Source: Phoronis australis (lineage: Eukaryota; Animalia; Phoronida). Taken from it: 64,000 nucleotides of DNA. Positions 2,857 to 48,650 of the stretch are shown here, piece by piece. The stretch is from the NCBI GenBank assembly GCA_002633005.1, contig NMRA01000920.1, positions 5,974-69,973 of the forward strand, written 5' to 3'. The position numbers were made by a program, and so were the translations under genes. Under the pieces are notes generated by a model that was not told the DNA's origin, ran no database searches, and worked only from the letters and a program-made list of their open reading frames with translations. Every line of letters begins with the position of its first letter. Positions within the stretch are counted from its first letter, which is position 1.

Positions 2857-4642
2857 TTTAATTCCAAGTTCACGTACAACAATCTCGTCTGATTGGTAAT
2901 TACATCGCCCTGGATGCCGCGGGAATACAGGGACGATAGTGCATCCCACAAAAAGTTACTCATTTCAAAATACAGGAAATAAAATCAAATGAAACATGCA
3001 TATGTGCACATGGAGTTATAAACAACTCATACCATAAGTTTGAAAACGATTCAGTCAAGATAATTTGAACAATGAAAATCTGTCGCTGTTTGCTCGAGTT
3101 TCTCTTACCCGCGGGTGCCATTTTGAGGAAGTTACGTGAAATCACGCATGTTGACGAATAAAAAGTCCAAGGGACACAAATCTTACAAATTTCACCTGAT
3201 ACCGTCTCATGCTATTTTGCAAGTGTCACGCACTAGTGTCACGCGCTTTGCTCAGTCTCACGCTAGCATTTTGCTTAACTCACGTGACTCAGTTGACTCA
3301 TACTTTGTGGTTATCGCGCGCGAGGTGAAAAAGTAAACTGCAGCCAAAAAAGTGGAGTTCGAATTCTTTGCCAAAGTCATCCTAATTCTCACACTACTAA
3401 GCTTCATCGAAGATATGTATCAAAATAGAAAGGACCAATGATGAAAGTAAACGCTTTTTAAATGATAGTTTGAGTGTGGAATGTATTTTTGACGAGGTGA
3501 AGACTCAAAATCGCCGGGTGACCGGATTTGGGTAACCGCAAGTTTAAAATACATGTAACGAAATGCGTACAGAAAGCGAATAGAAGTATTGTAGCCCCTA
3601 AATGGCCAACCGAGGGGCTACGTGTTGCCTACTCGTTTGAGAGCTCGAAAGCCACATTTCTTGTAGGCTTAATACAGCTAATCAAAACAGAAATATCTCT
3701 GGGCTTCCCTTAGTGATCGAAATTTTGTTTAATGATTTACCACTGAAGGGAGCAGCAGAGATTTCCGAGGGGTTTTCCCGGCCGAGGCCGGGCTTTTTAG
3801 TTACAGGAAGCAGTGGTTACCCGCGCTCTGACTCCCCATGCAGAGTCGAGGCAACACGTAGCCCCTCGGTTGGCAGGTTATAGGGCTACAATACTTCTTA
3901 TCGCTCTCTGTACTAATTTCGTCCGGTGTATTTTCGGGGAACGGGCGGTAGGCCAAATCCGGCCACCGATTAGGAGTTTTCACCTCGTCAAAAATACATT
4001 CCACACTTAAAACTATCACTCAAAAAAGCGCTTACTTTCTTCAGTGGTCCCTTCTACTTCTATCTTCGATGAAGCTTAGTTACGAGAAATCATGCAACTT
4101 TGGCGAAGAATTCCAACTCCACTTTTTTGGCCGTTACCGTTAACTTTTTCACCACCCGCGCGATAACCACAAAGTATTTTAACTGCGTAATGTGAGTTAG
4201 GCAAAGGCTAGAGCGTGAGACCATAGATTATAGACAACAGATTCGCAACTCCGGCATATTCTTACGAGCTGAGATGAACTCTCCTGACCTATCTGCTGCA
4301 GTTTCCGGTCAGTTTAATTTGACGAGAAATACTTGCATCTACTTTACTGTCCAAAACAGCGAAAAAACATTAATTTATATTGATTTCGGTATTGAAACGC
4401 TTTTCAAAGTCTATCAATAGTAGAAGTGTTGGTATTGTGAGTACTTTTGGCAATGCTACTGGTAATTAATTTCAAAATTCAAACTTCGGTTCCGACCCTT
4501 TATGTCGTCTGCTTGCCCAATAGCAGCATAGTTATCGGACAGTTTTTGATTTACGGTTCACATAGGCTTACTGAGAAAACTACGAAAGCGTGTTTATAAA
4601 TCAACATTCTCAAGTGAGCAGTTCTTCTGGGAAGTGTTGAGT

Positions 4643-4689
4643 GGCCCTTAAAAGGCCGTTGGTTGTAGGCAATGGTTCTTAAAAGAACC
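4643..4689 (-). terminator. Two tandem histone-type 3' stem-loops
   Basis: Minus strand reads CAAC-GGTTCT-TTTA-AGAACC-ATT (4674-4689; 6-bp stem, 4-nt loop), then CCAAC-GGCCT-TTTA-AGGGCC-ACTCA (4643-4657; one base short), then purine-rich CAGAAGAAC. Matches the metazoan histone stem-loop pattern GGYYYU-UUUM-ARRRCC. Confidence 0.7.
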
Positions 4690-4699
4690 GTTGAATAAT

Positions 4700-5017
4700 T
4701 CAACATAAATCACACAGTATACCATGCTCACTCAAGTACTGAAGGTCCTCACTCTTCATTCAAGTTTTCATCTGGGAAGGTTGGATGAAAACAGAGGAGA
4801 TGACAATATCGATGACAGTTGTAACACCTTAGATAGATATTACCGTTCACCAACGTTGTCACGAACCCTGCATCGTTCAGTTCTTGTTCCTGTGTCCATA
4901 AATAATCCTGAACTGTAGGAAAAAAATGACAACACAACGAATCAAATTTCGAAAATCATCGCCTTCGTACGATTCCGTGTTGCTGTCGCCAGACTGATGT
5001 TCTTCTCCAACGTCCAT
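4700..5017 (-). pseudogene. Intronless single PHD-finger (C4HC3) mini-gene, ~105 aa, two frameshifts
   Basis: Manual translation: MDVGEEHQSGDSNTESYEGDDFRNLIRCV/CHFFPTVQDYLWTQEQELNDAGFVTTLVNGNIYLRCYNCHRYCHLLCFHPTFPDENLNEE/EDLQYLSEHGILCDLC*, i.e. CxC...Cx2Cx4Hx2C...Cx2C. Confidence 0.65.
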
Positions 5018-5513
5018 TGTAAAAAATCGACGTTGCAAGTGATGGAAACTTGTCTACGCTCTCGTCCTTTGTTTCTAACCTTTAACCCATTTTTTAATAA
5101 AGGGGTGTACTGTTTTTGTCTCATGTTGATAGTGCATAATCTATGGTTTTACAATGTATTAATCGTGTTAAATGCATATATATGAACTGGTCTCATTGAG
5201 GTGCACAGCAAATAAATTAACTATAACAAATTAAAGTTTTGAAAATATAAAGAGCAGTAACAGACTCCCTAAAAATCAGGCTTGTTTTCGAAAGGTTTGC
5301 GCCATTGGTGATCCGATTGGTTCAATCGCTTGCGGCGGGAAAATGATAGACCCAGTTATTGTGCGCGTGTACACTGTATCAATGCTTTGTATCTTATTCT
5401 TATTTGTCTAATCTGTTGATACAGTAAATTTCCTTATTTATGCCCATCCTGATTTAACCCCGACTTGAGCTCCTTGGGTTCTACCATATTGGGGCTGTCC
5501 AGGGACTCACGTG

Positions 5514-5652
5514 CATGCGCGCACCCAGTCTTCAAAATGGGGGGCTCGAATTCCTGACGTTATGGACCTGTTGTTAACAAGAGAGCGGGCAGACCTTTTT
5601 GCCCACTTCGCCAAATGGGGGGGCTCGAACCCCCCCTCCGAGTGCGCGCATG
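5514..5652. mobile_element. CATGCGCGCAC-TIR MITE (hAT5-like), 5-bp TSD ACGTG
   Basis: acgtg|CATGCGCGCACCC...GAGTGCGCGCATG|acgtg. Confidence 0.85.
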
Positions 5653-5931
5653 ACGTGGTGCTTACTCGAATGAGTTTCATTTTAGCGGCTATTTCCAATT
5701 GTGTAGGTGAAGTAAATTAACAAAGTGGATGATTATCATCACCGGTATTTCATCATTAGTATTTTTGTCGGCCTCTCAAGTTTTCCGTGGGTCGGGATTG
5801 TCACATCTGTAAGGTAGACGTGTTTCAGTGAACCTCCATGTTTGTGGCGTTATTTATACCTGAAAAAACTTTGAAAAAGAAGCCCGCGTTTAAACCAGGA
5901 GCTTCATTGGGTGCAATTTGTGTAGACGTTT

Positions 5932-6088
5932 CATGCGCGCACCCAGCCTCTAATACGGGGGCTCGGATCTCTGGCAAAGTGGACCTTTTGCCAACAAAAA
6001 GCGTGAGAACTAAAATAAAAAACGGGGTACTGCCTTATTGTGGACTTTCGTCTCTTTCTCTTGGACTTTTCCCCTGGGTGCGCGCATG
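5932..6088. mobile_element. CATGCGCGCAC-TIR MITE (hAT5-like), 5-bp TSD CGTTT
   Basis: cgttt|CATGCGCGCACCCAG...CTGGGTGCGCGCATG|cgttt. Confidence 0.85.
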
Positions 6089-6849
6089 CGTTTGTCTACG
6101 TTGCTTGTTTTTATAAAGGTGGGCCTGTCTGCAGCCAACTACGGTAAATTCATAAAAGGTCACGTGCAGTGCAACTCAAGTTCATTACAAATTAAAAATC
6201 CGAACTTTCAAACTGTTTGATCTCAAATCAAAATTATGAAAATGCCACATAAAAGTATGAAATTGAAAATTAGCACACGTCAGCTTCACGTCCCTACCAC
6301 CCCCTTTATCTTGCTTGCTACCTCTTAGGGTTCATTTCCCTTGCTTCCGAGGTTTTTCGTTATTCTGGTATTTTCATAGACTGCAGCGTACTTGGCTAAG
6401 ATGGTTCAAGTTTTGTGCGGCATACAGTCGACATAAATAATTGAGTATGTAACCTGCTGTTGAATTGCGGGATAGATTTTGACAGGTCCAGGTATTTATT
6501 TCTGAAGTATTAATGTAATCTTTATTTATGTTAAAGGTTTTACTAGCGTCCTATTTATTTGTACACGAATGTGAATTTGTTGAAATCGCTGATCCAAATC
6601 CTGGCCAAATCTGCGCATTATGCTGAGACCAACCGTCTGATCAGGGCCACCTAAGAGTAATTTGGTTAATTCGCTCACTAGACTATGGCTGAAGGTCCTC
6701 GTAAGGACAAGAGTTCACCAGTCACTACCATTGGAAGAAATTTAGCGGACATTTTTCGTCAAAAAGTTTACCAGATAGTTTTCATCAAAACGGAGAAAAG
6801 AAAAATGGATTTGTGAAGACAGGATTAAGTAGTACCAGAGCCTCTTAAA

Positions 6850-7039
6850 AAACACCCATCTTCGAAGTGACGTGAACATATGTACAAGTTTTTTTGGAAG
6901 AACAACTTCCATTCACGTCGACGCGAGAACATAACTTTTTCTCCCACAGCGGATTTTGGGGTCTCCGTACACTATGGAAGCTAACGCCTCTGCATTTCGC
7001 CTGCGTAGCCGAACAACTGGCCACACAGCAGCCGACCAT
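6850..7039 (-). pseudogene. THAP DNA-binding domain remnant (transposase N-terminus)
   Basis: MVGCCVASCSATQAKCRGVSFH...P..W, then a frameshift to KNLYICSRHFEDGCF; this is the C2CH THAP signature. Confidence 0.85.
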
Positions 7040-8224
7040 GATTAGCAGACGACGTACTTGCCGGAAATTACACCAGATAATTTAGCCAGGTGTCGCCAGT
7101 GAATAATGACGTAAGGGCTTGTGCGCAAGCTCACAGATTTCGTCCATTGAAAGTATACGGAGTTGGCGGTCCATGTACTATAGTCTATGGTGAGACTGAG
7201 TAAAGCGCGTGACGCTGGCGCGTGACACTTGCAAAATAGCATGATGGGAAGGTATCAGGTGAAATTTGTAAGATGTGTGTCCCGGCTTGGACTTTTTATT
7301 CGTCAACATCCGTGATTTTACGTAACTTGTGGCACTTGGTAAGAGAAACTCGAGCAAACTACGACAGATTTTCATAGATTTGTTCAAATAATCTTCACTG
7401 AATCGCCTAAAGACTGATGGTGTGTATTAATTATAGCTCCATGGGCATAAATGCATTTTTAATTTGATTTTACTTTCTGTATTTTGAAATTCGTAACTTT
7501 TGTGGGGATTGCACTATCGCCCCTGTGTGATACATTATTGTAATTGCTCGAGCGACATAGCCCTATTTTCCCGTTCCACTAAAAACGCAGTACGTGATTT
7601 TTTGTGGAACCCGCAATTTCCCATTCGTTTGACAAAAAACGCGATTTTTTGCGGCGAGCATTTCACCCTTGCGTTTTGGCATAGACCCGGAAGTTCCGCT
7701 AATTATCCGGATGTCCCGCTTTATAATCCAGTTGTCCCGTTTTCTCTATCCAACAGGTGTTCAGTAAGGGTAATCTGAAAACCTAAGGTACGGAATTGGC
7801 CATTTAACATACTGCTAAAAGTGGAGAGTCATGCATAAATTGAGGTATAACTCTTTTACTGTAACGTATTTTGAAACCAAAATAGCCTGAAGGGCTAACA
7901 TTTGCAAGGTCATCGGGTGTAATGTTAGGTGACAAAAGTTTTGAAAGTACACTTTTATCTTGTCACCATGGTCCATTAAAGTGTACACTACATGACTCTA
8001 GTACCTCAAAATAAATTTTATTATTATATCTTACTTGATTTCAGTGCCTTTAGTGCATAGCTCATAAGAAACACGTAAAAATTGAAAAAAATAACAATTA
8101 TGTACAACGTCATGGGTTGAAGCCTCAGTCGTTCGTCATACTGTTCAGATCAGAGACAAATTTATTAAGAGTGGCGTGAAAGCAAAGTACATTTAGCGCC
8201 GAGAAGGTTCGTAGAGGGATCAAA

Positions 8225-10039: not shown

Positions 10040-11371
10040 ATTTATTCATGTTACAGGGGCCGGTAGAGAGGCTAAAATACGTTGCCCCTTAATTGGTACC
10101 GAGAGAGAGGAGCTATTAAATTGGTGGGTTGCGCGAGTTTGAGACCACGGCAATTACATTGGAGGCTTGTAAATAGACTTCAAAAGCACTGTACCATTGC
10201 TCGCATTGTCGCCAGGTCTAACCGACTGGGTGGGTTAAAGTTATGTCAAACCTTACTTAGTGGCCTCTATTTTAGCTTGTATATAAAAAACTAAGCTTTA
10301 TCAATTAGTAAATGTATATATTTTCTTGAAAAAGATCAGGTAATACAAAATGTGTTTTATACTTGTGTACCATTATTACTATCATTATTATATTCACACC
10401 TTTTAAATCAAATATTCATTTTTAAGAAATGTACATTCATAGCAGAATAACCCTTCGGTCGATTTTGACGTTTTTAAATGAAAACTTTCCCAGTTACCTC
10501 AAAAACGCTGTTAAGAATTTTTGATTAGTCTTTTCGTTTGGTTTCTAGGACAAACCAACTCGCAAAAGTAAGGTGTTTGTTTTGTAAAAAATAGCAGTCG
10601 TATTCGTCTTTGTTACATTACGCAAAAACTGGGTTTATATAGCGAAAATCGTGAATAAACATTAAGTTTTGAAAGTTTTGGAGAAATCCACCCAACCGTT
10701 TCCGAGAACTCGTGTTCTTTAGTTCGAATTAAGTCGATTTACCGAAGCCGAGAAAATCCGATTAAGTTGTGAGACATGAAAGTCTCAAGGTCTTCGGTTA
10801 GAACTAGTTTTCGTTCGGTATAACATATACATGCCTAACCATGTTCACTGTTTCAACATTCGCGCGCAATGTCAACTGAATTTGCAGTGCGTAATTACCT
10901 TAATTACCACAAAAACTTTCAATCAGCCACGTCGATTTCCAATGTGTGAGTCAAACTACGTCATGCAGGCGGAGCCAAGTAAACATATTAAGTTGGTCAA
11001 GCTGGTGCATTGTGGTCCACTTTAAAGTAGGTCAACAGTTCATTGTTATACACACCACCCCGTAAATGCAACCATGGGCCTCATCGGCGGACACATGTTC
11101 GTACAAGATGCTGCTTGGCTGCTTGTACAAGAACTCGATGAGAGACCAAACGTCACCACCGCTTTCAACATGGAAGCTCGGTAATGGCCCCCTGTAGTAG
11201 CCAAAGCAATGTGCCGTCAGCTATAATGTGACCTTGGCGGTATGAATGCAATCACGATAGTAGCAACAGATGGATCCTTCGATACTGCAATTAACCGTGC
11301 GTGATGCACCCCGGCCAACCCGCGATCGAGAACGCACGGAAGGCGATCGAGAACGCGACCTTACACCAAAA

Positions 11372-12335
11372 ATGGCAGACGACATTGAAGTACCCGGTGA
11401 GTTTAAATGTCATTTTCTTCTTAAAATACAGTCTAGAGGCTACTTTGGTACTATTGCGACACACTGAAAAGCGCCAGAGCTTAGCCTTTGTTGTGGATCT
11501 GAAATGATACTTGGCTTTTGCTATTTTTTGAAATAGAGATCGCAGAATCCAATGCCTTTCAGTAAAATGCCTTGCGTCTCGTAAATTTGTCAAATTTCTA
11601 CTTGTTATTAGCAATTCCTGGGTTCTTCAGTAGAGACGTGTAACGCTTATAGTTAAGTCGTCCGTGGTGACACCTTTCTTAGTTAGAATTTGTGGAAAAA
11701 ATCGAGCTATCTACCGATACAAGCAGGTCCTTGTGTGAGACGGCGATCAGGAACGAAGCTGTTAATTCTCCATGGCGATCGTGAACTCAAAAAGTGCGAT
11801 CGTGAACGCCCATTTTTTTCTCTGCATTTTCCTGAATAATCGTTCAAGTTACGGTGTCATATCAATAATTGTGGAATAATACGACCATGAATTAGTTGAC
11901 GGGTCGATTGTGTGTTATACTTTCACCGTTTTTCATGATTTCTGTGTGAGATTTAGCCTAACAAATATGATTAAATGCGTTTGATTTTTCAGTTGAGCAG
12001 TAGCCACACGAGGAGTCCGTCAGAGTGTTAACGTACACGCCTTCAAAAAGAATAGCACAACTGCTGCATGTGACAAAGGGCTGTGTATGCATATATGTTT
12101 GTGGAGCTTCGTTCTGGAATCAACCTTTTTTGTATAACCACATGACAATAAAACACAATGACACTCAGCCGCAAGCAAGACCTTTACCAGCTCCGTGTTG
12201 CATGGGGCAAGATTTTTTTACCGCATAAGAAAACACTATATGAAGCATAGTGCTCAGGAACCAAGTTGATTCAGTGCCCTATCTGCGATCAATGTTTCAG
12301 GGAAAGAGTAAGCCTGAGGACACTCGTTGTTGTGA
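11372..12335 (+). pseudogene. Two-exon C2H2 zinc-finger gene remnant inside the CAC element
   Basis: Exon 1 11372-11396 (MADDIEVP, donor GTGAGT); acceptor tttttcag before 11993; CIYVCGASFWNQPFLYNHMTIKH and QCPICDQCFRERVSLRT; stops and frameshifts present. Confidence 0.65.
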
Positions 12336-13004
12336 ATGTGTCATGCAAAGAGTATGCCTCCTTCTACAGACATGAGAACCAGAATCGCAATGAATAAAAT
12401 TATTCAGGGCAGTAGTGAAAGTTGTTAAGTCACGAAACTTTATTCAGATTTACAGAGTTTATGGTTGGTAGTTGTCTGATGTGATACTATTTTGATGTTT
12501 TGTTTTGAACCTTTAACAGAACCAGTGCATTTTTGTATTGTTACATTTAAATGGCCTACTATGAGTCATTGGGTGATACATGCAAACAATTGTTATGAAC
12601 AATTAGTATTTTAACAGAAAATTATATGTCTGCCATAATTGTAGAAATTCTTTTCATATTGTTGTTGATTTAATGTGAGAGAATTTTGTACTATGAAACG
12701 GTCCGAAATAGAATGTCTATGATTCAGTGATGATTTAGTCTAACACATTCCAAAAATAATTCGCAGAAAATGTACACTGGATTTGTAATGTTGATTTCCC
12801 TAAAGCAATATTTTATATCTTTTTTCTGTATGACCAATTTTGAGGTATGTGTGATAAAAGGTTAATAATATTATAGAATTGCTTTAATGTTGTTATTGTT
12901 GTTGTTGATTTCTTGTGTAATCACTACATTGTGTCTTGAAGTGATGTTAAAGACAACATTTTAACTACGTTGTTATGAAAATCACAAAATAGTATGTGTA
13001 TTAT

Positions 13005-14255
13005 AACTCGTCGAACTCTTTTTCAATGTCACATTAAACTGGAGATCATGAACTGAAGATGCACTCAGGACCAAGACTACAAAACAGAAGAGTCAAGCAA
13101 AAGGTACTATATAATGTATATCCAAGCCACACATGTGCCACAAGTCAATCTGTTCATCTCTGTATCATAATATCAGTAAAACATGAAACAAAATACCACC
13201 CGTTTTATCAGCGAAACAGTTAACACCATTTCTGGCAATTTTTTAAATCCCAGATGTTCATGAGCGGTAATCTTTGAATCACATCACGAATGGTGTTGCC
13301 GCTCTCTTCTCGCTCTCCACAGGCGCGCTCATCATCATTCTTTGACTTCACTGGCGTATTTCTTTTTTTCCTTTTGCTATCACAATCTTGCAAGAAGATT
13401 CGACACTCGCTTTCATCTTCATCAACAATTTGTTTACTTCTGGCTTACACGCCACATGGAACAATTGCTGGGTGAGGCTTTGTTTAGAACCCCTTGATTT
13501 CGTCTAAAAGTATGTGTCTGTATTAAACAACACTGGTAGGGTGTACTTTCACGCCCTGATTAACCTGTTCGTTGAAGCTCGCCTCACAATAATAGCAGTG
13601 AACTTGTTTCCTGAAATGAAAATAAATTCATTTGTGAAAATAGCTATAACTAAAATAGTGCTTGATGTACATGTAGTCGCTGTGATTTAATGCTAATGCT
13701 ATGATATTGTTTAGTATACGAAAGTAACAGAGTAATGACGCAAAATGCGATTAACTCATTGCACCACACTTATTTTGTAACTCTTTTCACGTTTTATAAG
13801 TAAACAGTTCATAACAGTTCGGCACACCACGATGAGTTCTCGATCGCATAAACAAACAAAAATCTGCGTTTCCGATCGCTTATCTTTGCGTTCTCGATCG
13901 CATCTTTCAATAGAAAAGTGTCGAAAAATCTGAGATCCTAACAAAATTACGAAAAACAAGCGTTACGTTATACTTTCACAAGTCATTTCTTCATAACTTC
14001 ATGGTCAATTTATTGATTTAGTGCCAAAAACAACCGCAATTTGCCAAAATGACATGCAAAGCACCTTTGACTCAAGGGATGCCCCGTTTAACGTTACTTT
14101 TCTGCAATATTTGGAATAGACTCTAGCCTAAACCTCTACCTGCCCTTCTTCAATGTGTTACGCCTTGAACTCATGCCTCTGTTTTCACATTGAAAGTTTA
14201 AAAACAACGTAAATTTATCAAATTTACTCACCTTGCCTGGCTTCGCTTCTCGCAA
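13005..14255 (-). pseudogene. Two-exon Cys-rich gene remnant (possible RAG1/Chapaev-type N-terminal zinc finger plus RING)
   Basis: Donor AAG|GTGAGT at 14232/14231 and acceptor ttcatttcag above 13610. KQVHCYYC...VHPTSV...PHP, a charged linker, then frameshifted CFM..TDIM..LTCG/HMCG..GPEC..DLQFNVTL. Heavily decayed. Confidence 0.4.
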
Positions 14256-16739
14256 TAAATTTCTCGTTTTCGATCGCTTTCCGGTCGTTCCCGATCGCGG
14301 GTTTGCCGGGGTGTGATGGGGCTATCAAATACTTTGCGCTGACAATTGCGGAAGGCAGCGGCTGCCACCACGTGTACACAAGTAGTAGACGGATGGAGTT
14401 TTAGGTTATACAACGCGCCCTAACGAAGCTACCACACCTATGCCTGGAGAACCACACCATAATCTTTGCCATCGATGACTCAATGAAAGTTCAGCTTGGA
14501 AATCTCCCAGCCAACTGGGTGTCTTCCAATCACGCCACCCTCATCATACAGTGATCTAGTCTTTCGTACCTGGCCACGCCGATGTCTTGATTAGTGAGTG
14601 TGCAGATTACTCATGCACCACCAAACAACCCCTCTTCTTATACTTGGCTGATGTTAAGCTGCTGGCTCACCGACGCACCTTCGAGCAGACTTCGTCCCAA
14701 CTGGCTGAGTTCAACGATGGTAGCCGACTGCTCGAAGCGGTTATTACTTATGACCATGCTGCTAAAAGTCATAACAAGAGCCGTGCCCGAGTGTTGTTCA
14801 ATCAGATGCTGACTCTGAGGCAACGTTAGCCCTGGAGTTCTACACCTCCTGCTATCACGCGGATGGTCTGGGGAAGGAATCAATGCACCAGCATATGCCC
14901 ACCACGTAACGGGACACTGATATGAAACCCAAGAACGAAATGAATAACAGTTGAAGTGCATCGTGAGATCAAAACAGAGAAATTTTAAATTACCTATCAA
15001 GTTAAGGAATTTGAGTGAGCATTTATCTCTTTTCCCAACTTGCTGTGTTCGTAAACACAAAGTCACAGAGGCGTGAGGTGACTCGTACATTCGCTCTCAA
15101 TTTGGACGTATGCACTCAGACACACAACTCCCTCATGTACATGTACTTTATTTCCATTTCTGTTGAGCAAGGATTCGATTACATCCAAAAATTTCAGTTG
15201 ATCCCTTATTGTTGTTTCATTTTCATACTATTCTACGTTTCTGCAAACTATAGTATCCTTTAAACGATCTGGATTACCTTATTTAGTTTCAGATTTAATT
15301 TCTATCTAATTTATTTACCAGAAAACTCTTACCTGAAAGTTTCGGATAGGTAGTTGGAGTAATTAGTTAACTGAGTCATATTTTTGTAAAAGTCACTGCA
15401 TCCTGAAGTGTTACTGAAGAATGTAATTGTACATAACGACACAAAAGGTCCAGTTAATATATGAAGATATATAATTTGGATGAATGCTTGACTTCATTCT
15501 TCACAACATCGGTGGAGGATTCATATTCTAAAATGTTTGTTGTTATCCGACAGCAATCTTTTGAATGAATGAAACTATTTTCCTACTCGTTTAATTAATC
15601 ATTTATATAACCTCTCTGATCCAATTCCTTTTTATGTTACTATTACATGCAAATTAATTGACATGACTGATAATTAGTTGAACAATTAATCTGCCAAATT
15701 GTACATGAATGGGTTCATTACTACACTCTATTATTTTTCACATTTTAGTTACACTCTTGTTTCTTAGAATCCGGAAATATTTCTTAAACATGTCAGATAT
15801 GCAGATTGATAACTGTTTATGGAGTAAATACTGATCTTTTGGTGTTAGCACACTCGCAAACCATCAAAAGTTAATGACGACTTTCAAATTATATGACTCT
15901 TATGCAACTTGGTTGAAAAAACGGCGGAGTTGCAAAAAGTTTTAGTGAAAGTAGAGACGGTGACATTTTTCGTATTGCCCTAGTTATTATGATTAAATTT
16001 TGTCCAAGGTTCACGATTTTGGTATCGCATTAGAGACCACGTGGTGCTTGATCATGTTGATAAATTTTAGGGAAATTGCAAGCTTTCGGAATTATTGTAA
16101 CACGTCTGGCTTTATTTTACGCCTAACGGCTAAATGGCGGTAACACCCACGGCCGGTGTCGTGTCCAATAATGCATCCTGTCCAATAATGCATCCAGAGT
16201 GTCTGCGCATGCGCTAGTTTTTCGGCTTCCGGTTTTTGCGCAATAGTGCATCCAAGTAGTCCGCTGGTTATTCGACTTACTATAAAAGCATCATTTGTGC
16301 CGCTTATGTTGTTTATTTTGGAAAAAAGAGATAAAGGGTAATGTCACTGATGTGTGTGAGTATCTTTCAAAGAGTGTTGAGCTTGAATTATTTCTACATG
16401 TACAAATGTAGGAGATTTTGTTGGCTTGCACTGGCAGGGAAGCCTATGTGAGCTCGTCCTCGGCTTCTGATCGTCTCTAAATGGCTCTAATACACTATAT
16501 ACTGCAAGGTATGACATTCGGGACTACGAATTCCACTGGTACTTCACTTCAGCCCTGAGCTGAGACCCTGACCACCGTCTCTAGCTGACAAGAGACGGTG
16601 TACCTCCTGAGAGTTATAGGACAGAATTTTGGCAAACTATGCCTCACACTGACTAAAGGCAAAGCATCAAACTGACGTTGTTGTAAATACCTTTCCAGGT
16701 TTTTGGGCATGGTGGGACACCTTAGCCACTTTCGGGTGC

Positions 16740-18230
16740 TTTATCAGATGGGTGGACGCAATATTGTGCAATAACACACCTTTCTTCCACAGCCACTTCT
16801 GACTGCGTTATTCGATAGGTGGATGCACTATTGTGCAATAACACCTCTGTCCAATAATGCATCCACAGCCACTTCTGACTGCTTTATCAGATGGACGGAT
16901 GCACTATTGTGCAATAACACCTCTGTCCAATAGTGCATCCACGGCCACTTCTGATTGCTTTATTCGATAGACGGATGCACTATTGTGCAATAACACCTCT
17001 GTCCAATAATGCATCCACAGCCATTTCTGACTGCTTTATCAGATGGACGGATGCACTATTGTGCAATAACACCTCTGTCCAATAGTGCATCCACGGCCAC
17101 TTCTGATTGCTTTATTCGATAGACGGATGCACTATTGTGCAATAACACCTCTGCCCAATAATGCATCCACAGCCATTCCTGACTGCTTTATCCGATGGAC
17201 GGATGCACTATTGTGCAATAACACCTCTGTCCAATAGTGCATCCACGGCCACTTCTGACTGCGTTATTCGATAGGTGGATGCACTATTGTGCAATAACAC
17301 CTCTGTCCAATAATGCATCCACAGCCATTCCTGACTGCTTTATCCGATGGACGGATGCACTATTGTGCAATAACACCTCTGTCCAATAGTGCATCCACGG
17401 CCACTTCTGACTGCTTTATTCGATAGACGAATGCACTATTGTGCAATAACACCTCTGTCCAATAATGCATCCACAGCCATTCCTGACTGCTTTATCCGAT
17501 GGACGGATGCACTATTGTGCAATAACACCTCTGTCCAATAGTGCATCCACGGCCACTTCTGATTGCTTTATTCGATAGACGGATGCACTATCGTGCAATA
17601 ACACCTCTGTCCAATAATGCATCCACAGCCATTTCTGACTGCTTTATCAGATGGACGGATGCACTATTGTGCAATAACACCTCTGTCCAATAATGCATCC
17701 ACGGCCACTTCTGACTGCTTTATCAGATAGACGGATGCACTATTGTGCGATAACACCTCTGTCCAATAGTGCATCCACGGCCATTTCTGACTGCTTTATC
17801 AGATGGACGGATGCACTATTGTGCAATAACACCTCTGTCCAATAATGCATCCACAGCCATTTCTGACTGCTTTATCAGATGGACGGATGCACTATTGTGC
17901 AATAACACCTCTGTCTAATAATGCATCCACGGCCACTTCTGACTGCTTTATCCGATGGACGGATGCACTATTGTGCAATAACACCTCTGTCCAATAGTGC
18001 ATCCACGGCCACTTCTGACTGCTTTATTCGATAGACGGATGCACTAATGTGCAATAACACCTCTGTCCAATAATGCATCCACAGCCATTTCTGACTGCTT
18101 TATCAGATGGACGGATGCACTATTGTGCAGTAACACCTTTGTCTAATAATGCATCCACGGCCACTTCTGACTGCTTTATTCGATAGACGGATGCACTATT
18201 GTTCAATACCATCTCTGTCCAATAGTGCAA
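16740..18230 (+). repeat. 76-bp tandem array, ~19-20 units (left arm)
   Basis: GCACTATTGTGCAATAACAC recurs at 16825, 16901 and 16977 (period 76); two variants largely alternate. Confidence 0.95.
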
Positions 18231-18866
18231 TAGTTTTTTGCCTCCAATCACCTAGTTTACTACTTATAATAAATGATAATAGGTAATGAACACAACAGTT
18301 CAGTTCTAACTTTGATAGTAATATTGAAGTTCAGGGTGAACAAATTTTTATCTGAAAAAAGGGGTGAGAGTTGATATGTCTAGCTGTAGTTGAACTTCAA
18401 TTTTTTAATAAACATTTTATTTTCAGATGGCAGAGACCTCAGGTGCAATGCATAAACGACATCTTAGATGGAGACACTGGGTGCTGTGGTGCTGGCGGGG
18501 TTGGTAAATGCCAAGTCTACAACTATGTGCATGGTAAACATAGGCCATTCAAGATGGACAAACATGAATTAACTGAACAATTACGAACAATGTTGTCAAA
18601 CTCAATAATGCTTCCACGACAGTACCAATATTGCACAAATTTCTTCTGCAATGGTTCTGAAACTTATCTAAAGTTATAGTTCAGCTTCAATTTAAAGAAT
18701 TCTGTACATATGCAAAAAAATAACGTCATTTGTCGTATATGTTAATGAATTTACACATTGATTAATACTGTTTTGTTGTCTTTCATTACACTCCTGACAT
18801 CACTGAAAACTAAGCTGAATTGCAGACTTCGTGAGCGACAACAAAAACAATGTGCATCGTCAGTCA

Positions 18867-19692
18867 ACTTAAAAGACAGCTGTTTTTGTCATCTAGATTT
18901 TCAGTAGACACTATGAAAATGTTGTGTGCCAAATTTCATAGTTGTGGTCTTAATATTGTAGATTTTGGAAGCAATTTTGCTTTGACTTTGCGTAAGAATT
19001 GGTGAGAATTTCATGTTTAGCCTGAGTTATGCTAGCTTTTTGGCTCTCATAGTCAGCCAAGTTTAAAGACAATTGTTTTTGTCTTGTAGATTTTCATTAG
19101 ACACTATGAATATGTTGTGTGCCAAATTTCATGGTTGTGCTCTTAATATTGTAGATTTTGGAAGCGATTTTGCTTTGACTTTGCGTAAGAATTGGTGAGA
19201 ATTTCATGTTTGGCCTGAGTTATGCTAGCTTTTTGGCTCTCATAGTCAGCCAAGTTTAAAGACAATAATTTTTGTCTTCTAGATTTTCATTAGACACTTT
19301 GAATATATTGTGTGCCAAAGTTCATGGTTGTGCTCTTAATATTGTAGATTTTGGAAGCGATTTTGCTTTGACTTTGCGTAAGAATTGGTGAGAATTTCAT
19401 TTTTGGCCTGACTTATGCTAGTTTTTTGGCTCTCACCGTCAGCCAAGTTTATAGACAATTGTTTTTGTCTTCTAGATTTTCATTAGACACTATGAATATG
19501 TTGTGTGCCAAATTTCATAGTTGTGCTCTTAATATTGTAGATTTTGGAAGCGATTTTGCTTTGACTTTGCGTAAGAATTGGTGAGAATTTCATGTTTGGC
19601 CTGAGTTATGCTAGCTTTTTGGCTCTCATAGTCAGCCAAGTTTAAAGACAATAATTTTTGTCTTCTAGATTTTCATTAGACACTTTGAATAT
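18867..19692 (+). repeat. 193-bp tandem array, >4 units, running into the gap (left arm)
   Basis: GACACT(A/T)TGAA recurs at 18907, 19100, 19293, 19486 and 19679. Confidence 0.95.
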
Positions 19693-20343
19693 NNNNNNNN
19701 NNNNNNNNNNNNNNNNNNNNNNNNNNNNNNNNNNNNNNNNNNNNNNNNNNNNNNNNNNNNNNNNNNNNNNNNNNNNNNNNNNNNNNNNNNNNNNNNNNNN
19801 NNNNNNNNNNNNNNNNNNNNNNNNNNNNNNNNNNNNNNNNNNNNNNNNNNNNNNNNNNNNNNNNNNNNNNNNNNNNNNNNNNNNNNNNNNNNNNNNNNNN
19901 NNNNNNNNNNNNNNNNNNNNNNNNNNNNNNNNNNNNNNNNNNNNNNNNNNNNNNNNNNNNNNNNNNNNNNNNNNNNNNNNNNNNNNNNNNNNNNNNNNNN
20001 NNNNNNNNNNNNNNNNNNNNNNNNNNNNNNNNNNNNNNNNNNNNNNNNNNNNNNNNNNNNNNNNNNNNNNNNNNNNNNNNNNNNNNNNNNNNNNNNNNNN
20101 NNNNNNNNNNNNNNNNNNNNNNNNNNNNNNNNNNNNNNNNNNNNNNNNNNNNNNNNNNNNNNNNNNNNNNNNNNNNNNNNNNNNNNNNNNNNNNNNNNNN
20201 NNNNNNNNNNNNNNNNNNNNNNNNNNNNNNNNNNNNNNNNNNNNNNNNNNNNNNNNNNNNNNNNNNNNNNNNNNNNNNNNNNNNNNNNNNNNNNNNNNNN
20301 NNNNNNNNNNNNNNNNNNNNNNNNNNNNNNNNNNNNNNNNNNN
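19693..20343. other. Assembly gap (651 N)
   Basis: Run of n. Confidence 1.
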
Positions 20344-21087
20344 TTTATTGACAACACATACCATTTTGATGACGATTTGCAAGTAACGAAGACATCAAAA
20401 CAAAATTGTCAAATTAGATACTTATACCCTACCTATCTTGACTCTGCGCTTAATGCAGGCATCAAACTACCTGTATGTAAAATTCCTTCTTAGCACTTCA
20501 CTTATTCTTTTGAAAGGAGCATAATAAAGTTTATCTTATCTTTATAGCACTTTTCATACAAAGTTTTCGATTTTGCTAATTGGGAGGGGCTATCATCAAA
20601 CTAGCAAGAGTAAAACAATTGGATGGCGGTGACAGAAGATTTTCAGTCTGCATAACCTCTTTAGCTGGCTAAAAGCTAATATAGAATTGTTTGGTTTAAT
20701 CCCATGTATTCTTATTTCACAGAGGTTTAAGTAACTTACAAACATTTTCGAATAAGGTATGTAAGGATTCTCTCTGAAGCAAGATCGCCACTCAAGATTT
20801 CGAGGTTCCTGTTGGCAGCGTTACCACAAAGAAATGTTGTCATAATTCAATTTTCGTATTTTAGCCAGCGACATAACGGGAACATCCAGTTGTAAAATGA
20901 TGTAAGTCACTGCTTTTTATTTTTTTCATTTAGTCATATAGCCCATACTGGGCCTGAGGATCTTTTCAAGTTCATATATAACGTCGGCTCAGTTGCGCGA
21001 TTAGCAGTTGCGATGTACATTGTGTGTGTTACATTGAAGATTTTACGGAGAAATGTAAGAAGGGCGTAACCAAGCATTTGCAGCAAG

Positions 21088-21347
21088 TGTAATCAAGTGT
21101 CTACCATTCTTGTGTCCTCTGTCCTGTACAGGTAAAACCTGGCAGGACACGACAAGAAAGCAGATTAATTGAATACATTGCTGCGAGAGACATTCGAACA
21201 TTCTCCCAATGTAATGTTTTGGTGTCATCGGCGATTTCGGAACAATCGCAAGCTCATCGTGACCAAGTGCATCTGAATGATCAAGGTCTTCGATTGTATC
21301 GGTCATTAAAGTGCGCCATCGTGCATGCTATAAATATGGCAAGAAAG
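21088..21347 (+). pseudogene. SGNH/GDSL-hydrolase-like domain remnant
   Basis: VSTILVSSVLYR*...LNTLLRETFEHSPNVMFWCHRRF / HRDQVHLNDQGLRLYRSLKCAI; DxxH block V-like motif. Confidence 0.55.
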
Positions 21348-23009
21348 AAACCCCAAGGCCCTTTTCAGGGCCACTACATATTCCCAAAGGAACTGTTCAC
21401 TTTTTTGAGCATTTTATCTTCACTTTAACTGATCTCATTAATTGCATTACGATGCCAAGACGCCCGTGAAATATGGCAAAAACCAAATGTCTTAAAGTTT
21501 ATTGAAATTTGTGAAGCAATACATATGTATATTCCTCATTCCTCTTAATGTGTAAATCTGTAGCTGTAGTTGAAAAGTGATGGGGTGCGATTTTCTTTTT
21601 GGTTATTTTCAAAAACAAGATGTATGAGATTTACAACAAAGGCCTTTCTTAATCGTTAACCTTACGTGTTGGCAAGTCATTGTGCGTGGATGCGTTTGTG
21701 TTAAAATAATCGTCAGCTTTGTTACTGATGCGGGCGTGCACTTTTTCTTGTTCCTGTATGAACATCGATAAGAAAACATTGAAAATTTCGCCCGTTATAT
21801 GCTAAAATAGTGCGGCGATGCGGGTTTCACTAGTTTGCATTAACAGAGAAGCGCAAGGTTCAAAATGATGCGAGCGTGGACCACAACCATTTTTTCAAAA
21901 TTTCTGGCGTATCTTTAAGTCATGCAAAGAGCGCAGACCAGAACCAATATAATTTGCGACGTTAGGCTTTACTGTAACTTCTTGAAAAGACCTAGATGCG
22001 ACGAATTGCCTTGAGACGAAATTGCAATCACGCCGATACGCAACTGAACAATGCCAAACAGAAAAATCCGACTTGGAGATTTTAGGAATCAAAGTTCCAT
22101 TTCTTGCAATGAATGACTTGAGCAGGAGTTATGAATTAGCTACATTTCTTCTCAAAGTGAATACTGTTACTATGTTATCATTTTAAGGTTCCTGTACAAG
22201 ACTGAAGAAGCGTTTTCGTGAACACAGCAACACGATTGCTTACATTTCACAAGTTACCATTATCAAGAAATTTTCGGATTTCCACATTGGAACCTAAAAA
22301 GTTGTTTCGTTGACTACTAAGATAAAGTCGCAAACCTGAAAGTCGTACTAACGTGAAGGTGTAATAAACACTGTTCAATTACTACTAAATATACAATTTT
22401 TGGAAACAGTTGTTATTTTTCAGACGTCCTGGTTTGCAGAAAATGAACACCTATTTCCCAAAAGCTACTACAACTGTCTGGGGCAAGTATCCCGCAAAAA
22501 GCCAACTCAAGTAATGTTAAGTTATTTTACAGTGAAACTTGCGTTCTACAGATTTTACCTGGCGCAATTATCGTACTTTCAATTTCGTCTTTCTCAAGAT
22601 ACCGATGGCACTGTAAAGTAGTAGTACAAGCAACGCTGTGCAATATCTTACAAGGGATGCGGACAAAGTTTTCAGCGCCTTTAATTGACGATCATTTATC
22701 AAAAATGCTGCCAACTTCAGTGAAGATCTGCTGTGGGTGCAACGCCTTTGATGACTTGGAAATTCCTTTTGTCAGTGGAGCGGCACGAAATAACGCTGTA
22801 TCAAAGGAAGATCAACAGGCTTTATTTAGCACCCAAAATAAGCTGCGCCCCCAATTTCACACCCGATCTTATTTGCCTCGTGGTGTTGCTTTCCCTGTCT
22901 GTTTTGCAATTGGCTGATTGAAGTTAACTGAGTGGTCCAATTAAAAAGTCTGGTGACTGTCAGAGCACGTAATATTCGTATTTAAGTTTACACTGTCTGG
23001 ATAAGCCAT

Positions 23010-23935
23010 GTCTTAACTGACTATGAGAGCATACACAATATCAAGAGCACAATCATGAAATTAAGCACACAACATATTTATAGTGTCTAATGAAAATTTA
23101 GAAGACAACAACAATTGTCTTTAAACTTGGCTGACTATGAGAGCCAAAAAGCTAGCATAACTCAGGCCAAACATGAAATTCTCGCTCATTCTTATGCAAA
23201 GTCAAAGCAAAATCGCTTCCAAAATCTACAAAATCAAGAGCACAACTATGAAATTTGGCACACATCATATTTATAGTGTCTAATGAAAATCTAAAAGACA
23301 ACAACAATTGTCTTTAAACTTGGCTGACTATGAGAGCCAAAAAGCTAGCATAACTCAGGCCACACATGAAATTCTTGCTCATTCTTATGCAAAGTCAACG
23401 CAAAATCGCTTCCAAAATCTACAAAATCAAGAGCACAATCATGAAATTTTGCCCACAACATATTAATAGTGTCTAATGAAAATCTAGAAGACAACAACAA
23501 TTGTCCTTAAACTTGGCTAACTATGAGAGCCAAAAAGCTAGCATGACTCAGGCCAAACATGAAATTCTCACCAATTCTTACGCAAAGTCAAAAAAAATCG
23601 CTTCCGAAATCTACAATATTAAGAGCACAACCATGAAATTTGGCACACAACATATTCATAGTGTCTAATGAAAGCCTAGAAGACAAAAACAATTGTCTTT
23701 AAACTTGGCTGACTATGAGAGCCAAAAAGCTGGCATAACTCAGGCCAAACATGAAATTCTCGACCATTCTCAAAGCAAAATCGCTTCCATAATCTACAAT
23801 ATCAAGAGCACGACCATGAAATTTGGTACACAACATATTCATAGTGTCTCATGAAATCTAGAAGACAAAAACAATTGTCTTTAAACTTGGCTGACTATGA
23901 GAGCCAAAATACTAGCATAACTCACGCCAAACATG
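23010..23935 (-). repeat. 193-bp tandem array, ~4.7 units (right arm, inverted)
   Basis: Reverse complement of the 18867-19692 unit (AAACTTGGCTGACTATGAGAGCCAAAAAGCTAGCATAACTCAGGC). Confidence 0.95.
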
Positions 23936-24825
23936 ACTGACAATGCACATTGTTCTTGTTGTCGCTCACGAAGTCTGCAATTCAGCTCATCTTTCTGTGA
24001 TGCCAGGACTGCAAGGAAAGACAACAAAACAGTATTAATCAATGTGTAAATATATTAATTCATTAACATACAAGACAAATGCCGTTATTTTTTACTTACT
24101 TACAGAAATTGTTTAAACTGAAGCTGAACTATAATACTTACATAAGTCTCAGAACCATTTCAGAAGAAATTTGTGCAATATTGGTACTCTCGTGGATGCA
24201 TTATTGAGTTTCGTATCTGTTCAGTTAGATTCTAATTCATGTTTGTCCACCTTGAATGACCTATGTTTACCATGCACATACATGTAGTTGTACAATTCGA
24301 ATTTACCAACCCCATCAGCAGCACGGCAGTCAGTGTCTACATCTACGATGTCTTTTATGGAATGCACTTGAGGTCTCTGCCACCTGAAAATAAAATGTTT
24401 AAATTGAACTTAAACTACAATTAGACATATCAACCCTCATCCTTTTTCCAGATGAAATTTGTTTGCCCTGAACTTTACTATCAAAGTTAGCACTGAACTA
24501 TTGTGTTCGTTAGTGTTACATGATCCCATGGATTAGGCCTATTATCATTTATTTCTCTTAACTGTTCAGTTAGATCATAAATCATGTTTGTCCATCTTGA
24601 ATGACTTACGTTTACACCACAGCACCCAGTGTCTACACATCTACGATGTGTTTTATGCATTGCACTTGAGGTCTCTGCCATCTGAAAATAAAATTGAAGT
24701 TGAACTATAGTTAGACATATCATCTCTCATCCTTTTTTAAGATGAAATTTGTTCACCCTGAACTTCAATATTACTATCAAAGTTAGCACTGAACTGTTGT
24801 GCTCATTATCTATTATCACTTATCA

Positions 24826-25590
24826 TTCGATAAAGCAGTCAGAAATGGCTGTGGATGCATTATTGGACAGAGATGGTATTGCACAATACTGCAACCATCT
24901 ATCGTATAGAGCAGTCAGAAGTGGCCGTGGATGCACTATTGGACAGAGATGTTATTGCACAATAGTGCATCCAACTATCGGATAAAGAAGCCAGAAGTGG
25001 CTGTGGATGCATTATTGGACAGAGATGTTGTTGCACAATAGTGCATCCATCTATTGGATAAAGCAGTCAGAAGTGGCCGTGGATGCACTATTGGACAGAG
25101 ACGTTGTTGCACAATAGTGCATCCATCTATCAGATAAAGCAGCCAGAAGTGGCTGTGGATGCATTATTGGACAGAGATGTTGTTGCACAATAGTGCATCC
25201 GTCCATTCGATAAAGCAGTCAGAAGTAGCTATGGATGCATTATTGGACAGAGATGGTATTGCACAATACTGCAACCATCTATCGTATAGAGCAGTCAGAA
25301 GTGGCCGTGGATGCACTATTGGACAGAGATGTTATTGCACAATTGTGCATCCATCTATCGGATAAAGCAGCCAGAAGTGGCTGTGGATGCATTATTGGAC
25401 AGAGATGTTGTTGCACAATAGTGCATCCATCTATTGGATAAAGCAGTCAGAAGTGGCCGTGGATGCATTATTGGACAGGTGTGTTATTGCACAATACTGC
25501 ATCCACCTATCAAATAAAGCAGTCAGAAGTGGCTGTGGAAGACAGGTGTGTTACTGCACAATATTGCGTTCACCCATCTGATAAAGCACC
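24826..25590 (-). repeat. 76-bp tandem array, ~10 units (right arm, inverted)
   Basis: Reverse complement of the 16740-18230 unit (GGATGCA[C/T]TATTGGACAGAG). Confidence 0.95.
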
Positions 25591-27759
25591 GGAAAGTGGC
25601 TAAGGTGTCCCACTATGCCCAAAAACCTGGAAAGGTATTTACAACAACGTCAGTTTGATGCTTTGCCTTTAGTCAGTGTGAGGCATAGTTTGCCAAAATT
25701 CTATCCTATAACTCTCAGGAGGTACACCGTCTCTTGTCAGATAGAGACGGTGGTCAGGGTCTCAGCTCACGGCTGAAGTGAAGTACCAGTGTAATTCGTA
25801 GTCCCGAATGTCATACCATGCAGTATATAGTGTATTAGAGCATTTTAGAGACTATCAGAACCCGAGGACGAGCTCACATAGGCTTCCCTGCCAGTGCAAG
25901 CCAACAAAATCTCCTACATTTGTACATTTAGAAATAATTCAAGCTCAACACTCCTTGAAAGATACTCACACACATCAGTGACATTTCCCTTTATCTCTTT
26001 TTTCCATAATAAACAACATAAGCGGCACAAATGATGCTTTTATAATAAGTCGAATAACCAGCGGACTGCTTGGATGCACTATTGCGCAAAAACCGGAAGC
26101 CGAAAAACTAGCGCATGCGCAGAATACGCAAACCAGCTCAGGATGCATTATTGGACAGGATGCATTATTGGACACGACACCGGCTTCCAGAGTCGTAAGG
26201 AGATGATCCCGAGTTTGATAACGTTTAAGACCATTAGATCGCAAAATATTCCAAAATATCTGGTCGATTTGGAAGAAGTTTCCAAAGAAGGCAGTTTTAA
26301 ACTTACATTAATTTGTACTAAACAGACATCCACGCTGAGTCCTATGATAGCAAGAATCAACCATGAACACAACCTAGTCCCACGCATGCGCGGAAAACCG
26401 CATGAGATCGAAGTCGGTATTCCAGTTCAAGAGTAGCTGCAGCATAGACGTACTTGCTGGTCCTCTACGTGCCTAGCCAGCTGGCTACTGACCACCTAAT
26501 GGCACGCAGGGAACCAGCAAGCATGGACATGTTAATGCTGTGATGTTTATGATCTGCAGTTTTATGATAGGAACAACCAAAAATTTTCCAGCTATAATGT
26601 TTGTATTAATCCACTGAAGACTTCAGTCTTGTTTGCAAGAAAGTGATTTTGAAATCTATTGTATACGATGTCATTTCTCTTCCTTTAACGAGTTACATTT
26701 CCGTTGACTTAGTTATCTTCGTTGACGTTACTTTCCTTCTGTTGACGCATCAGTACTGATAAAGCCTCGTTACGAGTAACGCCAGAGACGTCAGCATGAC
26801 AGAAGCCTTGCTACCAGAGTCAATAGCCGCGTTTTCCTTCATAAAGTCTAACGTTCCTAAGGACTTGGCCACTGAAAGTAGACAATGTTTTGTTGCAAAA
26901 GTTCATTGTATTTTCTTGAGGAAATTTTCATTGAGCTTCTGAAAACTTGGCCGTTGAAAGAAGAAGCGGGGAAGAACGTTCAAGTCCATCAGTTTAGGAA
27001 GTACTGTCGTTTTGAAATGCATTTCTTTGTGGGGCGGATGTCGGCTCGTAAACATCCGATGTTATGTGGGCGCGTAACCGGATTCAAAATATGGGTTTGG
27101 TGAGATCTGGCTTTCGCCTAATCGAATGATACGAGCCTCGAAAACAGTTTGCTTAATTAAAAGATTTGCTGATCTATGTATTTATTCGAGGCATTTTGCG
27201 GCTAATTTCTCCACGATGGTTGTTTTGTAGTACTCGCACCAAAAAAGCATGCTGCAGGGGACCGGTAGGCCGACTGCTGCGCTGAAGTGCAAGTGTTTTC
27301 CGCTATTTGACACGTTACCAAGTTGTGAGCACTCCAATTACAGCCCAAGGCTCTAATTTTTGTACTCGAAATGGAGCTCGAAATTATTATTGACATTTTC
27401 CGTTCTGTTTTTTGGCCAACTCAACATAAGTGTCTGTTATTCTGTGGTCGAGTGTATTATGGTCTACGCAGACGAGCTTTCATTATGAGGTCATCATATG
27501 CAAATTGAGGATAGACAGTCATCCACGTAAATTATAATGTATAAGAACACAAGACTAGTCCGAGTCCTATTTATCAGCCCTAACCCTGTCATCAGAAAAC
27601 ACGAAAGTTACCTTTCATTGAAATAGCGTCAGTAAGATAACTTCTGCTGATGGAACCAACGGAAGATTCGGTGGTTATGGTGCACCTGAAATTGGACTTG
27701 ATATATGCATCGAGAATTAACATAACGTAACGAGTATGTATCTCCAACTTTCGATGATC

Positions 27760-46280: not shown

Positions 46281-46654
46281 CTATATAGCGTGTTCGTAAT
46301 TTCGAATATCGAATGACATCACACCCGGTTACAACTTACTGACGTGAAAGGGGCCTAATGATTTAGTGTCCATCCATACCCAATCATTCTCCGATTTTCC
46401 AACTGTAGCAACGCACCTACAAAATATAGGCACAGTAGTGAACAAACGCGTATTGCGTGAAAGTGCTCATTAGTGACCTTCGAATACCGCAGTGATGTGA
46501 CCGTTGTGCCCTTTTATGCATACAAGGAAACGCCATACAGGTATCGGACAATTGAAAATCGTCTTGTTTCCAGGAGAAAAAGTGCTCAGTACCATCACGC
46601 GCAAATGCACGGTGGCTGTAAAAGGACATCACGGCAACATTTTTCCTCCGATGC

Positions 46655-47150
46655 TAACTCTATCGATAGACTTATTAACTTAGACTTACCATCTCTATCG
46701 ATAGTTTTATTAACTCTGTCGATAGACTTAATATCTCTATCGATAGGCTTATTAGCACTATCAATAGACTTACCACCTCTATCGATAGACTTATTAACTC
46801 TATCGATAGACTTACCATCTCTATCACTAGACCTATCACCTCTATCGGTAGACTTATTAACACTATCTATAGGCTTACTATCTTTATTGATAAACTTATT
46901 AACTATTTCGATAGACTTAGTATCTGTATCGATAGACTTACTATCCCTATCGATAGACTTACTATCTCTATTGATAGACTTACTATCTCTATCGATAGAC
47001 TTAGTAACTCTATCGATATACTTATTAACTCTATCCATAGACTTAGTATCTCTATCGATAGACTTAGTATCTCTATGGATAGATTTACTATCTCTGTCGA
47101 TAGACTTACTATCTCTATCGATAGACTTATTAACTTACTAACTCTATCGA
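46655..47150 (+). repeat. 21-bp minisatellite (~23 units) with palindromic core TCTATCGATAGA
   Basis: Unit ~ TCTATCGATAGACTTA[C/T]TA[AC/TC]. Confidence 0.95.
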
Positions 47151-48359: not shown

Positions 48360-48650
48360 TCAAACTCGTTGAGAGAAGGCCCCAGACGGATCAATGACAG
48401 ATAACACTTTCCAAATTGTGCCTCGAGGTACAGTTACACCATTTGCTACGCACTTGATGCATAAATGAATAACCGTGCATCTGACCTGAACCCGCAAAAA
48501 GTTCTTCAACAAAATGAACCATTTCATCAAAATCAAACATATTTTTACGGCGCAGAAGTCCGTAAGTCGCCAAAAACACGTCACAATTGCCTTGTGCTTA
48601 GTGACGCTCCAAAACGACGCATAGGTACCGTTGTTATTTCATTTTGAGTC
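48360..48650 (-). pseudogene. Integrase-type transposase N-terminal fragment (IS3EU-like)
   Basis: YGLLRRKNMFDFDEMVHFVEELFAGSGQMHGYSFMH / KCVANGVTVPRGTIWKVLSVIDPSG; the catalytic core is missing. Confidence 0.7.

Follow-up and report, generated by a model that had tools for sequence, protein, structure and literature searches.

Histone mRNAs are described as the only cellular mRNAs known to lack a poly(A) tail, and no real non-histone target of SLBP was found in HeLa cells (PMC4604434, as far as the available portion of that paper goes). The accessible sections of PMC5054213, and likewise of PMC6303110, treat histone mRNAs as the pathway's only clients. U7 is connected with mobile DNA in one described case: at HERV1/LTR12 it acts by blocking transcription, with neither a requirement for SLBP nor cleavage (10.1101/2023.08.25.554787, from the available part of the text). 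A literature search over titles and the openings of abstracts, with subscription papers and Repbase barely covered, returned no account of a histone hairpin at the end of a transposon gene or of any gene other than a histone gene.

On the transposon side, the available text of PMC7776569 gives P elements a THAP domain, inverted ends that are short, and duplications of 8 bp, with numerous copies carrying deletions, and the term 'PHD' occurs 0 times in it. PHD fingers encoded by DNA transposons are described for the RAG2-like protein of RAGL and for the Rehavkus transposases (excerpts of PMC7204232 and PMC6446971), and the known transposon fingers lie inside larger proteins (PMC6446971, PMC7204232 and PMC4411706, each in excerpt).

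Here we describe a locus in a window of 64,000 nucleotides from the phoronid Phoronis australis (contig NMRA01000920.1), to which all positions below refer. A small PHD-like frame lies inside a multi-copy transposon and is followed by hairpins and a purine-rich element that match real histone 3′ ends. A transposon gene with the full histone signal, if true, would be an exception to the histone-only rule.

The transposon that carries the cassette

A preliminary description of this DNA had the PHD cassette carried by a transposon. The cassette does lie inside one, but the carrier is an inner element at 4222–7189 and not the outer CAGGG-ended foldback (2928–7525), which is the recipient of the inner element. 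The inner element is a non-autonomous, probably P-like DNA transposon of 2,968 bp, whose putative THAP remnant and PHD cassette share one orientation on the minus strand. Its terminal inverted repeats match at 11 of 12 bases (left repeat at 4222–4233 on the plus strand, beginning CATAG; right repeat at 7178–7189 on the minus strand) and are flanked by identical 7-bp target-site duplications at 4215–4221 and 7190–7196 (plus strand). The P superfamily is characterized by CANRG ends and 7-bp duplications, and the combination of terminal inverted repeats with a duplication of 7–8 bp that marks it is present here (12 bp with 11 matches, and 7 bp).

Removal of 4222–7189 rejoins the arms of the outer foldback, which are 79% alike over 742 columns with the inner element left out. 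These arms are ∼700 bp long, and no clear target duplication was found at the ends of the outer foldback (2928–7525). At 4220–4222 and at 7189 the flanks of reads and contigs become mixed, as is expected of true ends; behind 7189, 64 X4 contigs and 185 X10 reads had loose ends, with agreement of 0.44 and 0.54, respectively.

The putative THAP-domain remnant (6825–7039, minus strand) is frameshifted near 6888, a position where one or two bases are inserted in part of the other copies. Two pieces of the remnant match Pfam THAP with E-values of 0.067 and 0.0064, both under cut-off. In a search for a transposase core, four frames lying between 5828 and 6912, selected out of 42, were compared with Pfam, and none had a match. 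The element also contains a short high-copy repeat at 5514–5655, recognized by a sharp local rise in depth, by loose ends at 5514 and by a minor joint that links 5497 to 5655. Judged by its ends and contents, the sequence at 4222–7189 is probably a deleted P-like element.

The end segments 4222–4263 and 6990–7189 also occur in relatives of much greater abundance, which part from the element behind 4263 and are probably a short non-autonomous family with the same ends. Two further repeat structures were noted in the window: an inverted-repeat element at 11307–14313, whose arms are 52 nt long at 87% and enclose spaced repeats of 21 nt, and a region at 46611–49331 in which short repeats, in part palindromic, form two inverted blocks that are about 77–80% alike.

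A PHD-like frame and its protein family

The PHD-finger mini-gene (4700–5017, minus strand) is an intronless frame of ∼105 codons that runs from an ATG at 5017 to a TGA at 4702–4700 and is open if two frameshifts, near 4928 and near 4748, are allowed. The ligand pattern C-x2-C ... C-x2-C-x4-H-x2-C ... C-x2-C is spread over three segments in two frames, and the stop follows directly after the last cysteine. The broken C4HC3 frame of the preliminary description is therefore recovered, as is its decay: the copy in the window is dead, with the two frameshifts in the coding frame and one stem base missing from the second of its two hairpins. Each frameshift is read through in frame by a natural relative. 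The junction near 4928 is bridged by P0003 (89% identity) and that near 4748 by P0004, which ends in the same last cysteine as the window frame; both relatives are decayed outside the junction they bridge. The middle segment of the frame matches the family profile with a probability of 98.8 and an E-value of 6.7e-17, and the window fragment alone matches Pfam PHD at an E-value of 0.0058, under cut-off. The frame is PHD-like and encodes no histone, unlike a replication-dependent histone gene.

The surroundings of the frame also agree with the preliminary description, which had reported no AATAAA ahead of the stem-loops: there is none on the minus strand from 5350 to 4600, and the first downstream ATTAAA is at 4318. 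Two CCAAT boxes spaced 12 bp apart (5304–5320, minus strand) lie ∼300 bp upstream of the ATG and are weak evidence of a possible promoter.

A profile search returned 15 proteins, most of them 107–110 amino acids long, among 403 candidates of 10–322 amino acids. Members of the family (P0005, P0008–P0026) stand alone, each being made up of an acidic start, which is conserved, and a single finger. Near-identical members of the P0005 type, five in number, lie on as many different contigs (0.7–9 Mb), and two family genes (DPMN_056048 and DPMN_041554) are present in the zebra mussel Dreissena polymorpha, where they are annotated as hypothetical; protein identity over these relatives is 31–62%; in the records that bear a name, the family is named hypothetical only. 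The eight C4HC3 metal ligands are invariant in all 10 intact relatives, and the core has the spacing C-x2-4-C-x4-5-H-x2-C. Core spacing distinguishes PHD fingers from RING-variant fingers, and a RING-variant ligase, which would also be C4HC3, was set aside because the spacing is of the PHD type. Thirteen of 17 aligned members match PHD_NSD at E-values up to 0.05, and P0005 scores above the cut-off (27.7 versus 23.9).

A whole-library search with P0003 gave only 5 matches, one of which, the 958-residue repeat protein P0007, was dropped as a chance match. Among viral contigs, the P0003 query returned a chance match in a phage-like gene (L001), and queries with P0016 and alignment A3 gave no match. 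Two matches in prokaryote genomes (L007, L008) extended over only 14–25 residues and were judged to be chance, and phage records gave no match.

The structural model of P0005 has a mean pLDDT of 68.5 and a helical insert after the first cysteine pair; a single-sequence fold with a pLDDT of 45.8 was set aside. When the P0005 model was used in a wide structural search, the first 17 rows were PHD-containing, with a weak best match (Z 3.8, rmsd 3.4, 65 aligned), and Foldseek gave a best E-value of 0.12 with RING entries at low rank. The best hit of a PDB sequence search with alignment A1 was the PHD finger of TRIM33 (E 0.074). An ESM Atlas search with residues 22–82 of P0003 was uninformative (best score 0.83).

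Readers of H3K4me3 have a Trp two residues before the His ligand, as part of an aromatic cage. In the family, this position is an invariant Tyr (17 of 17 rows), a C-terminal Trp is absent and the insert is long and helical, so that the aromatic cage of an H3K4me3 reader is not found. The finger is atypical, and because a Tyr stands where such readers have a Trp, H3K4me3 would not be a safe guess for the mark that it binds.

The histone-type 3′ end

The preliminary description placed two tandem histone-like stem-loops, starting 10 nt past the stop, and then a purine-rich element behind the frame, and all three are found on the minus strand in that order. Hairpin 1 (4689–4674) is a perfect 6-4-6 hairpin that begins 10 nt past the stop. 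Hairpin 2 (4657–4643) begins 42 nt past the stop and is missing one stem base. The purine-rich histone downstream element (4629–4612), a predicted U7-binding site, has the motif and spacing found behind H3, H2A and H2B genes in two metagenome loci (L002, L003). The two hairpins have different stems, both of the 6-4-6 form, with a 6-bp stem, a 4-nt loop, G paired with C at stem position 2 and a U at loop position 3. The downstream element stands behind hairpin 2 only, hairpin 1 having none of its own, and the cut is predicted to fall near 4638. The usual distance from stop to signal is 25–60 nt, with a median of 30 nt (10.64898/2026.10.14.759114, in its accessible portion); hairpin 2, at 42 nt (∼51 nt in copies with a longer spacer), falls inside this range, and hairpin 1, at 10 nt, falls outside it. 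From the stop to the hairpins, no frame holds any remnant of histone coding sequence.

Scoring with the Rfam Histone3 model (RF00032), a check put forward with the preliminary description, went against both hairpins behind the PHD frame. On this decayed copy, hairpin 2 scored 22.3 bits and hairpin 1 scored 20.6 bits, both below the gathering score of 34 bits. The corresponding E-values were 0.0018 and 0.0077 in a 1-kb search, and 0.11 and 0.49 in a search of the whole window. Because both scores are below 34 bits and the whole-window E-values are 0.11 and 0.49, the hairpins of the window copy, taken alone, are borderline; the score of hairpin 2 is lowered because one stem base is absent. We also counted perfect canonical 16-nt hairpins, using a pattern that agrees with the Rfam consensus. 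The window contains two (at 4689 and 21357), compared with 0.0005 expected from an order-1 Markov model.

To compare the signal with real histone genes, a search pattern made from the window hairpin and downstream letters was run over metagenome contigs. The scan returned five loci, of which three (L004–L006) were bacterial coding matches lacking a hairpin and were dropped. The other two (L002, L003) hold real histone genes, and all four eukaryotic pattern matches are histone ends, L002 contributing those of H3 and H2A, and L003 those of H2A and H2B. The PHD cassette was present in none of the five loci, and a scan of viral contigs with the pattern gave 0 matches. Positions 4613–4662 of the window match these ends, which come from another animal, at 84–86% over 50–51 nt (E-values of 3e-8 to 8.6e-10, the best pairs at 2.5e-9 to 8.6e-10), a likeness that is partly circular for the downstream letters shared with L002 and L003, as the loci were fetched by a window-derived pattern, and that extends beyond the pattern to the 5′ stem, the flank before the 5′ stem and the spacer. 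With a query of only the 29 nt behind a histone hairpin, two window sites scored best, at 30 and 29, narrowly above the next place at 27. Because hairpin 2 and the downstream element match real histone 3′ ends, the sequence comparison supports reading them as a true histone-type 3′ signal, and the earlier identification of the stem-loop and purine-rich element as a histone-mRNA signal gains from the same match to H3, H2A and H2B ends.

A second histone-type signal occurs in the spacer of a foldback of ∼10 kb (16152–26184), whose inverted arms carry 76-bp and 193-bp tandem arrays, and adjoins an N gap at 19693–20343. Here a second non-histone frame (21093–21401, plus strand) ends in a Histone3 hairpin at 21352 that scores 36.5 bits, above the cut-off, and the downstream element is the same as that behind hairpin 2. 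The frame had no Pfam, PDB or homolog match, and it is SGNH-hydrolase-like by eye only.

Other copies of the element and RNA reads

The depth of contigs over the inner element was compared between the PHD frame and other parts in X2 and X4, which are one sample; a marine metagenome row with a small share (X7) was left aside. In X2, the PHD frame has a contig depth of 487 at 4894, versus 438–526 at six places from 5791 to 6214; in X4, it is 283 at 4894, 252–277 at 5791, 5904 and 6214, and 230 at 6879 in the THAP part. These values are contig depths and not copy numbers, minor contigs have a depth of 4–10, and the rows were chosen for few overlapping contigs, other rows having greater depth (X2 reaches, for instance, 927 at 5018 and 1032 at 6879). 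The even depth suggests one unit that would be present in tens of copies. Because the depth over the cassette is about equal to that over the rest of the inner element, the PHD cassette is probably native to it.

Each defect of the window copy can be compared with the other copies. The base that completes hairpin 2, inserted at 4653, is present in 70 of 120 RNA reads (39/58, 27/55 and 4/7 by run), counts that may be inflated by host histone ends. In X1 the same base accounts for 163.6 of a contig depth of 173.8, and this depth of 163.6 also has indels between the two hairpins. Among 110 RNA reads, 79 have a 4-base loss at 4748. At 4927/4928, a gain of 4 bases makes up 438.5 of 467.5 of the contig depth in X2 and 221.6 of 505.6 in X4, but fewer than half of the RNA reads carry it (34 of ∼87 in X8, 18 of ∼44 in X9 and 2 of 11 in X10). 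Such indels undo the two frameshifts of the window copy. Both the hairpin-2 base and the change at 4748 are present in X6, which bears a second species label and covers 25 of 30 bins at a depth of 2–7.

Whether the stem-loops are linked to the PHD frame in other copies had been raised with the preliminary description, and two records link them. Record 11 of X5 covers 4601–4890, and its 14 gaps equal the indels of hairpin, spacer and frameshift added together; record 14 of X6 covers 4591–4707 and combines a complete hairpin 2 with cassette-specific indels. No single contig or read was seen to span an intact PHD frame or the whole inner element. Taken across molecules, the alleles make it likely that the common or founding form was a gene with its frame intact and hairpin 2 complete.

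The RNA runs X8, X9 and X10, of which 18–19% each was analysed, carry the same species label; their library selection is unspecified, and they come without a silent control stretch. Reads of all three runs cover the inner element thinly and on both strands. The proposal that the element borrows histone mRNA processing stands in part: the signal, its linkage to the frame and its probable nativeness speak for it, but RNA reads cross the hairpins without ending there. Neither a pile of molecule ends nor a drop in depth was seen at the predicted cut in any of the three raw runs, and in X8 the depth is ∼70 downstream of the cut and 45–76 over the hairpins and the end of the frame. This pattern fits read-through from decayed copies in other transcripts, or poly(A) selection that would hide a tail-less mRNA, and it lends processing no support and argues mildly against strong expression in these samples. 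We infer U7 processing of the PHD mRNA from the sequence of its 3′ end.

Interpretation and comparison with described systems

On balance, we lean towards the interpretation that the PHD gene is a native accessory gene of a THAP-bearing, P-like transposon family, with an mRNA that is ended by the host histone pathway. RNA polymerase II would transcribe the gene from an internal promoter, SLBP would bind hairpin 2, and the U7 snRNP would pair with the downstream element. CPSF73 would then cut ∼5 nt behind the hairpin, producing an mRNA without a poly(A) tail. Such an mRNA might be abundant only in replicating cells or in histone-loaded eggs and embryos, where transposition would be inherited and could raise copy number. 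The small finger may act on chromatin for the element; a role as partner or in anti-silencing would be more likely than that of a classical H3K4me3 reader. If this is true, mobile DNA could match the timing of a chromatin protein to cell division or to the egg, and poly(A) RNA-seq would overlook messages of this kind.

It is rather unlikely that the cassette is passive cargo, acquired when a non-autonomous element captured a host PHD mini-gene together with its histone-type end, or when a histone 3′ flank landed behind the frame, and since replicated with the element to no benefit of its own. A signal so close to real histone ends could be explained in this way, as could an inner element in which no transposase core was found and RNA runs in which processed RNA was not seen. 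Against it stand the interval between stop and hairpins, which holds no histone coding remnant, and two hairpins with unlike stems that are both of the 6-4-6 form. The five dispersed and almost identical family members resemble a mobile family of recent date, and a second case is found in a different foldback of the window. Even so, a host non-histone gene as the source would still be an exception to the histone-only rule.

We consider it more doubtful still that the hairpins serve mainly as a terminator or a decoy. As a terminator, U7 cleavage would keep transcription that comes from the THAP end out of the left inverted end, limiting read-through and double-stranded RNA; the signal is the last feature before that end in the orientation of the THAP frame, but the RNA reads cross the site. 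As a decoy, the tandem hairpins would bind SLBP without a useful PHD mRNA, and hairpin 1, just 10 nt from the stop and without its own downstream element, is suited to such a role, whereas hairpin 2 is at a normal distance from the stop. Human LTR12, which is repressed by U7 via HDE-like motifs (10.1101/2023.08.25.554787, again in its available part), speaks for this reading. Both versions are at odds with a frame that is open in common alleles and belongs to a conserved family, the eight ligands of which are invariant in 10 intact members. Chance hairpins behind a decayed zinc-finger frame are very improbable and largely refuted, since the sub-threshold Rfam scores, the whole-window E-values of 0.11 and 0.49 and the close ranking of the 29-nt query (30 and 29 versus 27) are outweighed by the 50-nt match to histone ends (E about 1e-9), the two perfect hairpins versus 0.0005 expected, and the completed form of hairpin 2 that other copies carry, also under a second species label.

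The native accessory gene may also be one of several. We tentatively entertain, at somewhat less than even confidence, a class of small, intronless, histone-like accessory genes that are borne by invertebrate DNA transposons and use SLBP and U7, the PHD family included. If true, the SLBP/U7 pathway would have many selfish non-histone clients, whose mRNAs would be non-polyadenylated and either replication-coupled or stored in eggs.

Compared with the 3′ end of replication-dependent histone mRNAs, the locus has the same 6-4-6 hairpin, the same spacing of the element, an intronless frame and no nearby AATAAA, but the frame encodes no histone, it lies in a transposon and it is followed by two hairpins. 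Like members of the P superfamily (Drosophila P, zebrafish P-like), the carrier has short inverted ends, a putative N-terminal THAP domain and many internally deleted copies; it differs in its 7-bp duplication, compared with 8 bp in the available text of PMC7776569, in that no core was found, and in its second small gene. In the RAG2-like protein of RAGL and in Rehavkus, a large protein includes the finger as one of its domains, whereas here it is a stand-alone protein of ∼105 amino acids with its own 3′ signal. LTR12 is likewise a mobile element with a U7-complementary motif, but here a full hairpin and downstream element close a coding frame. Set beside these systems, the locus is probably a case of the known histone pathway serving a new, selfish client.
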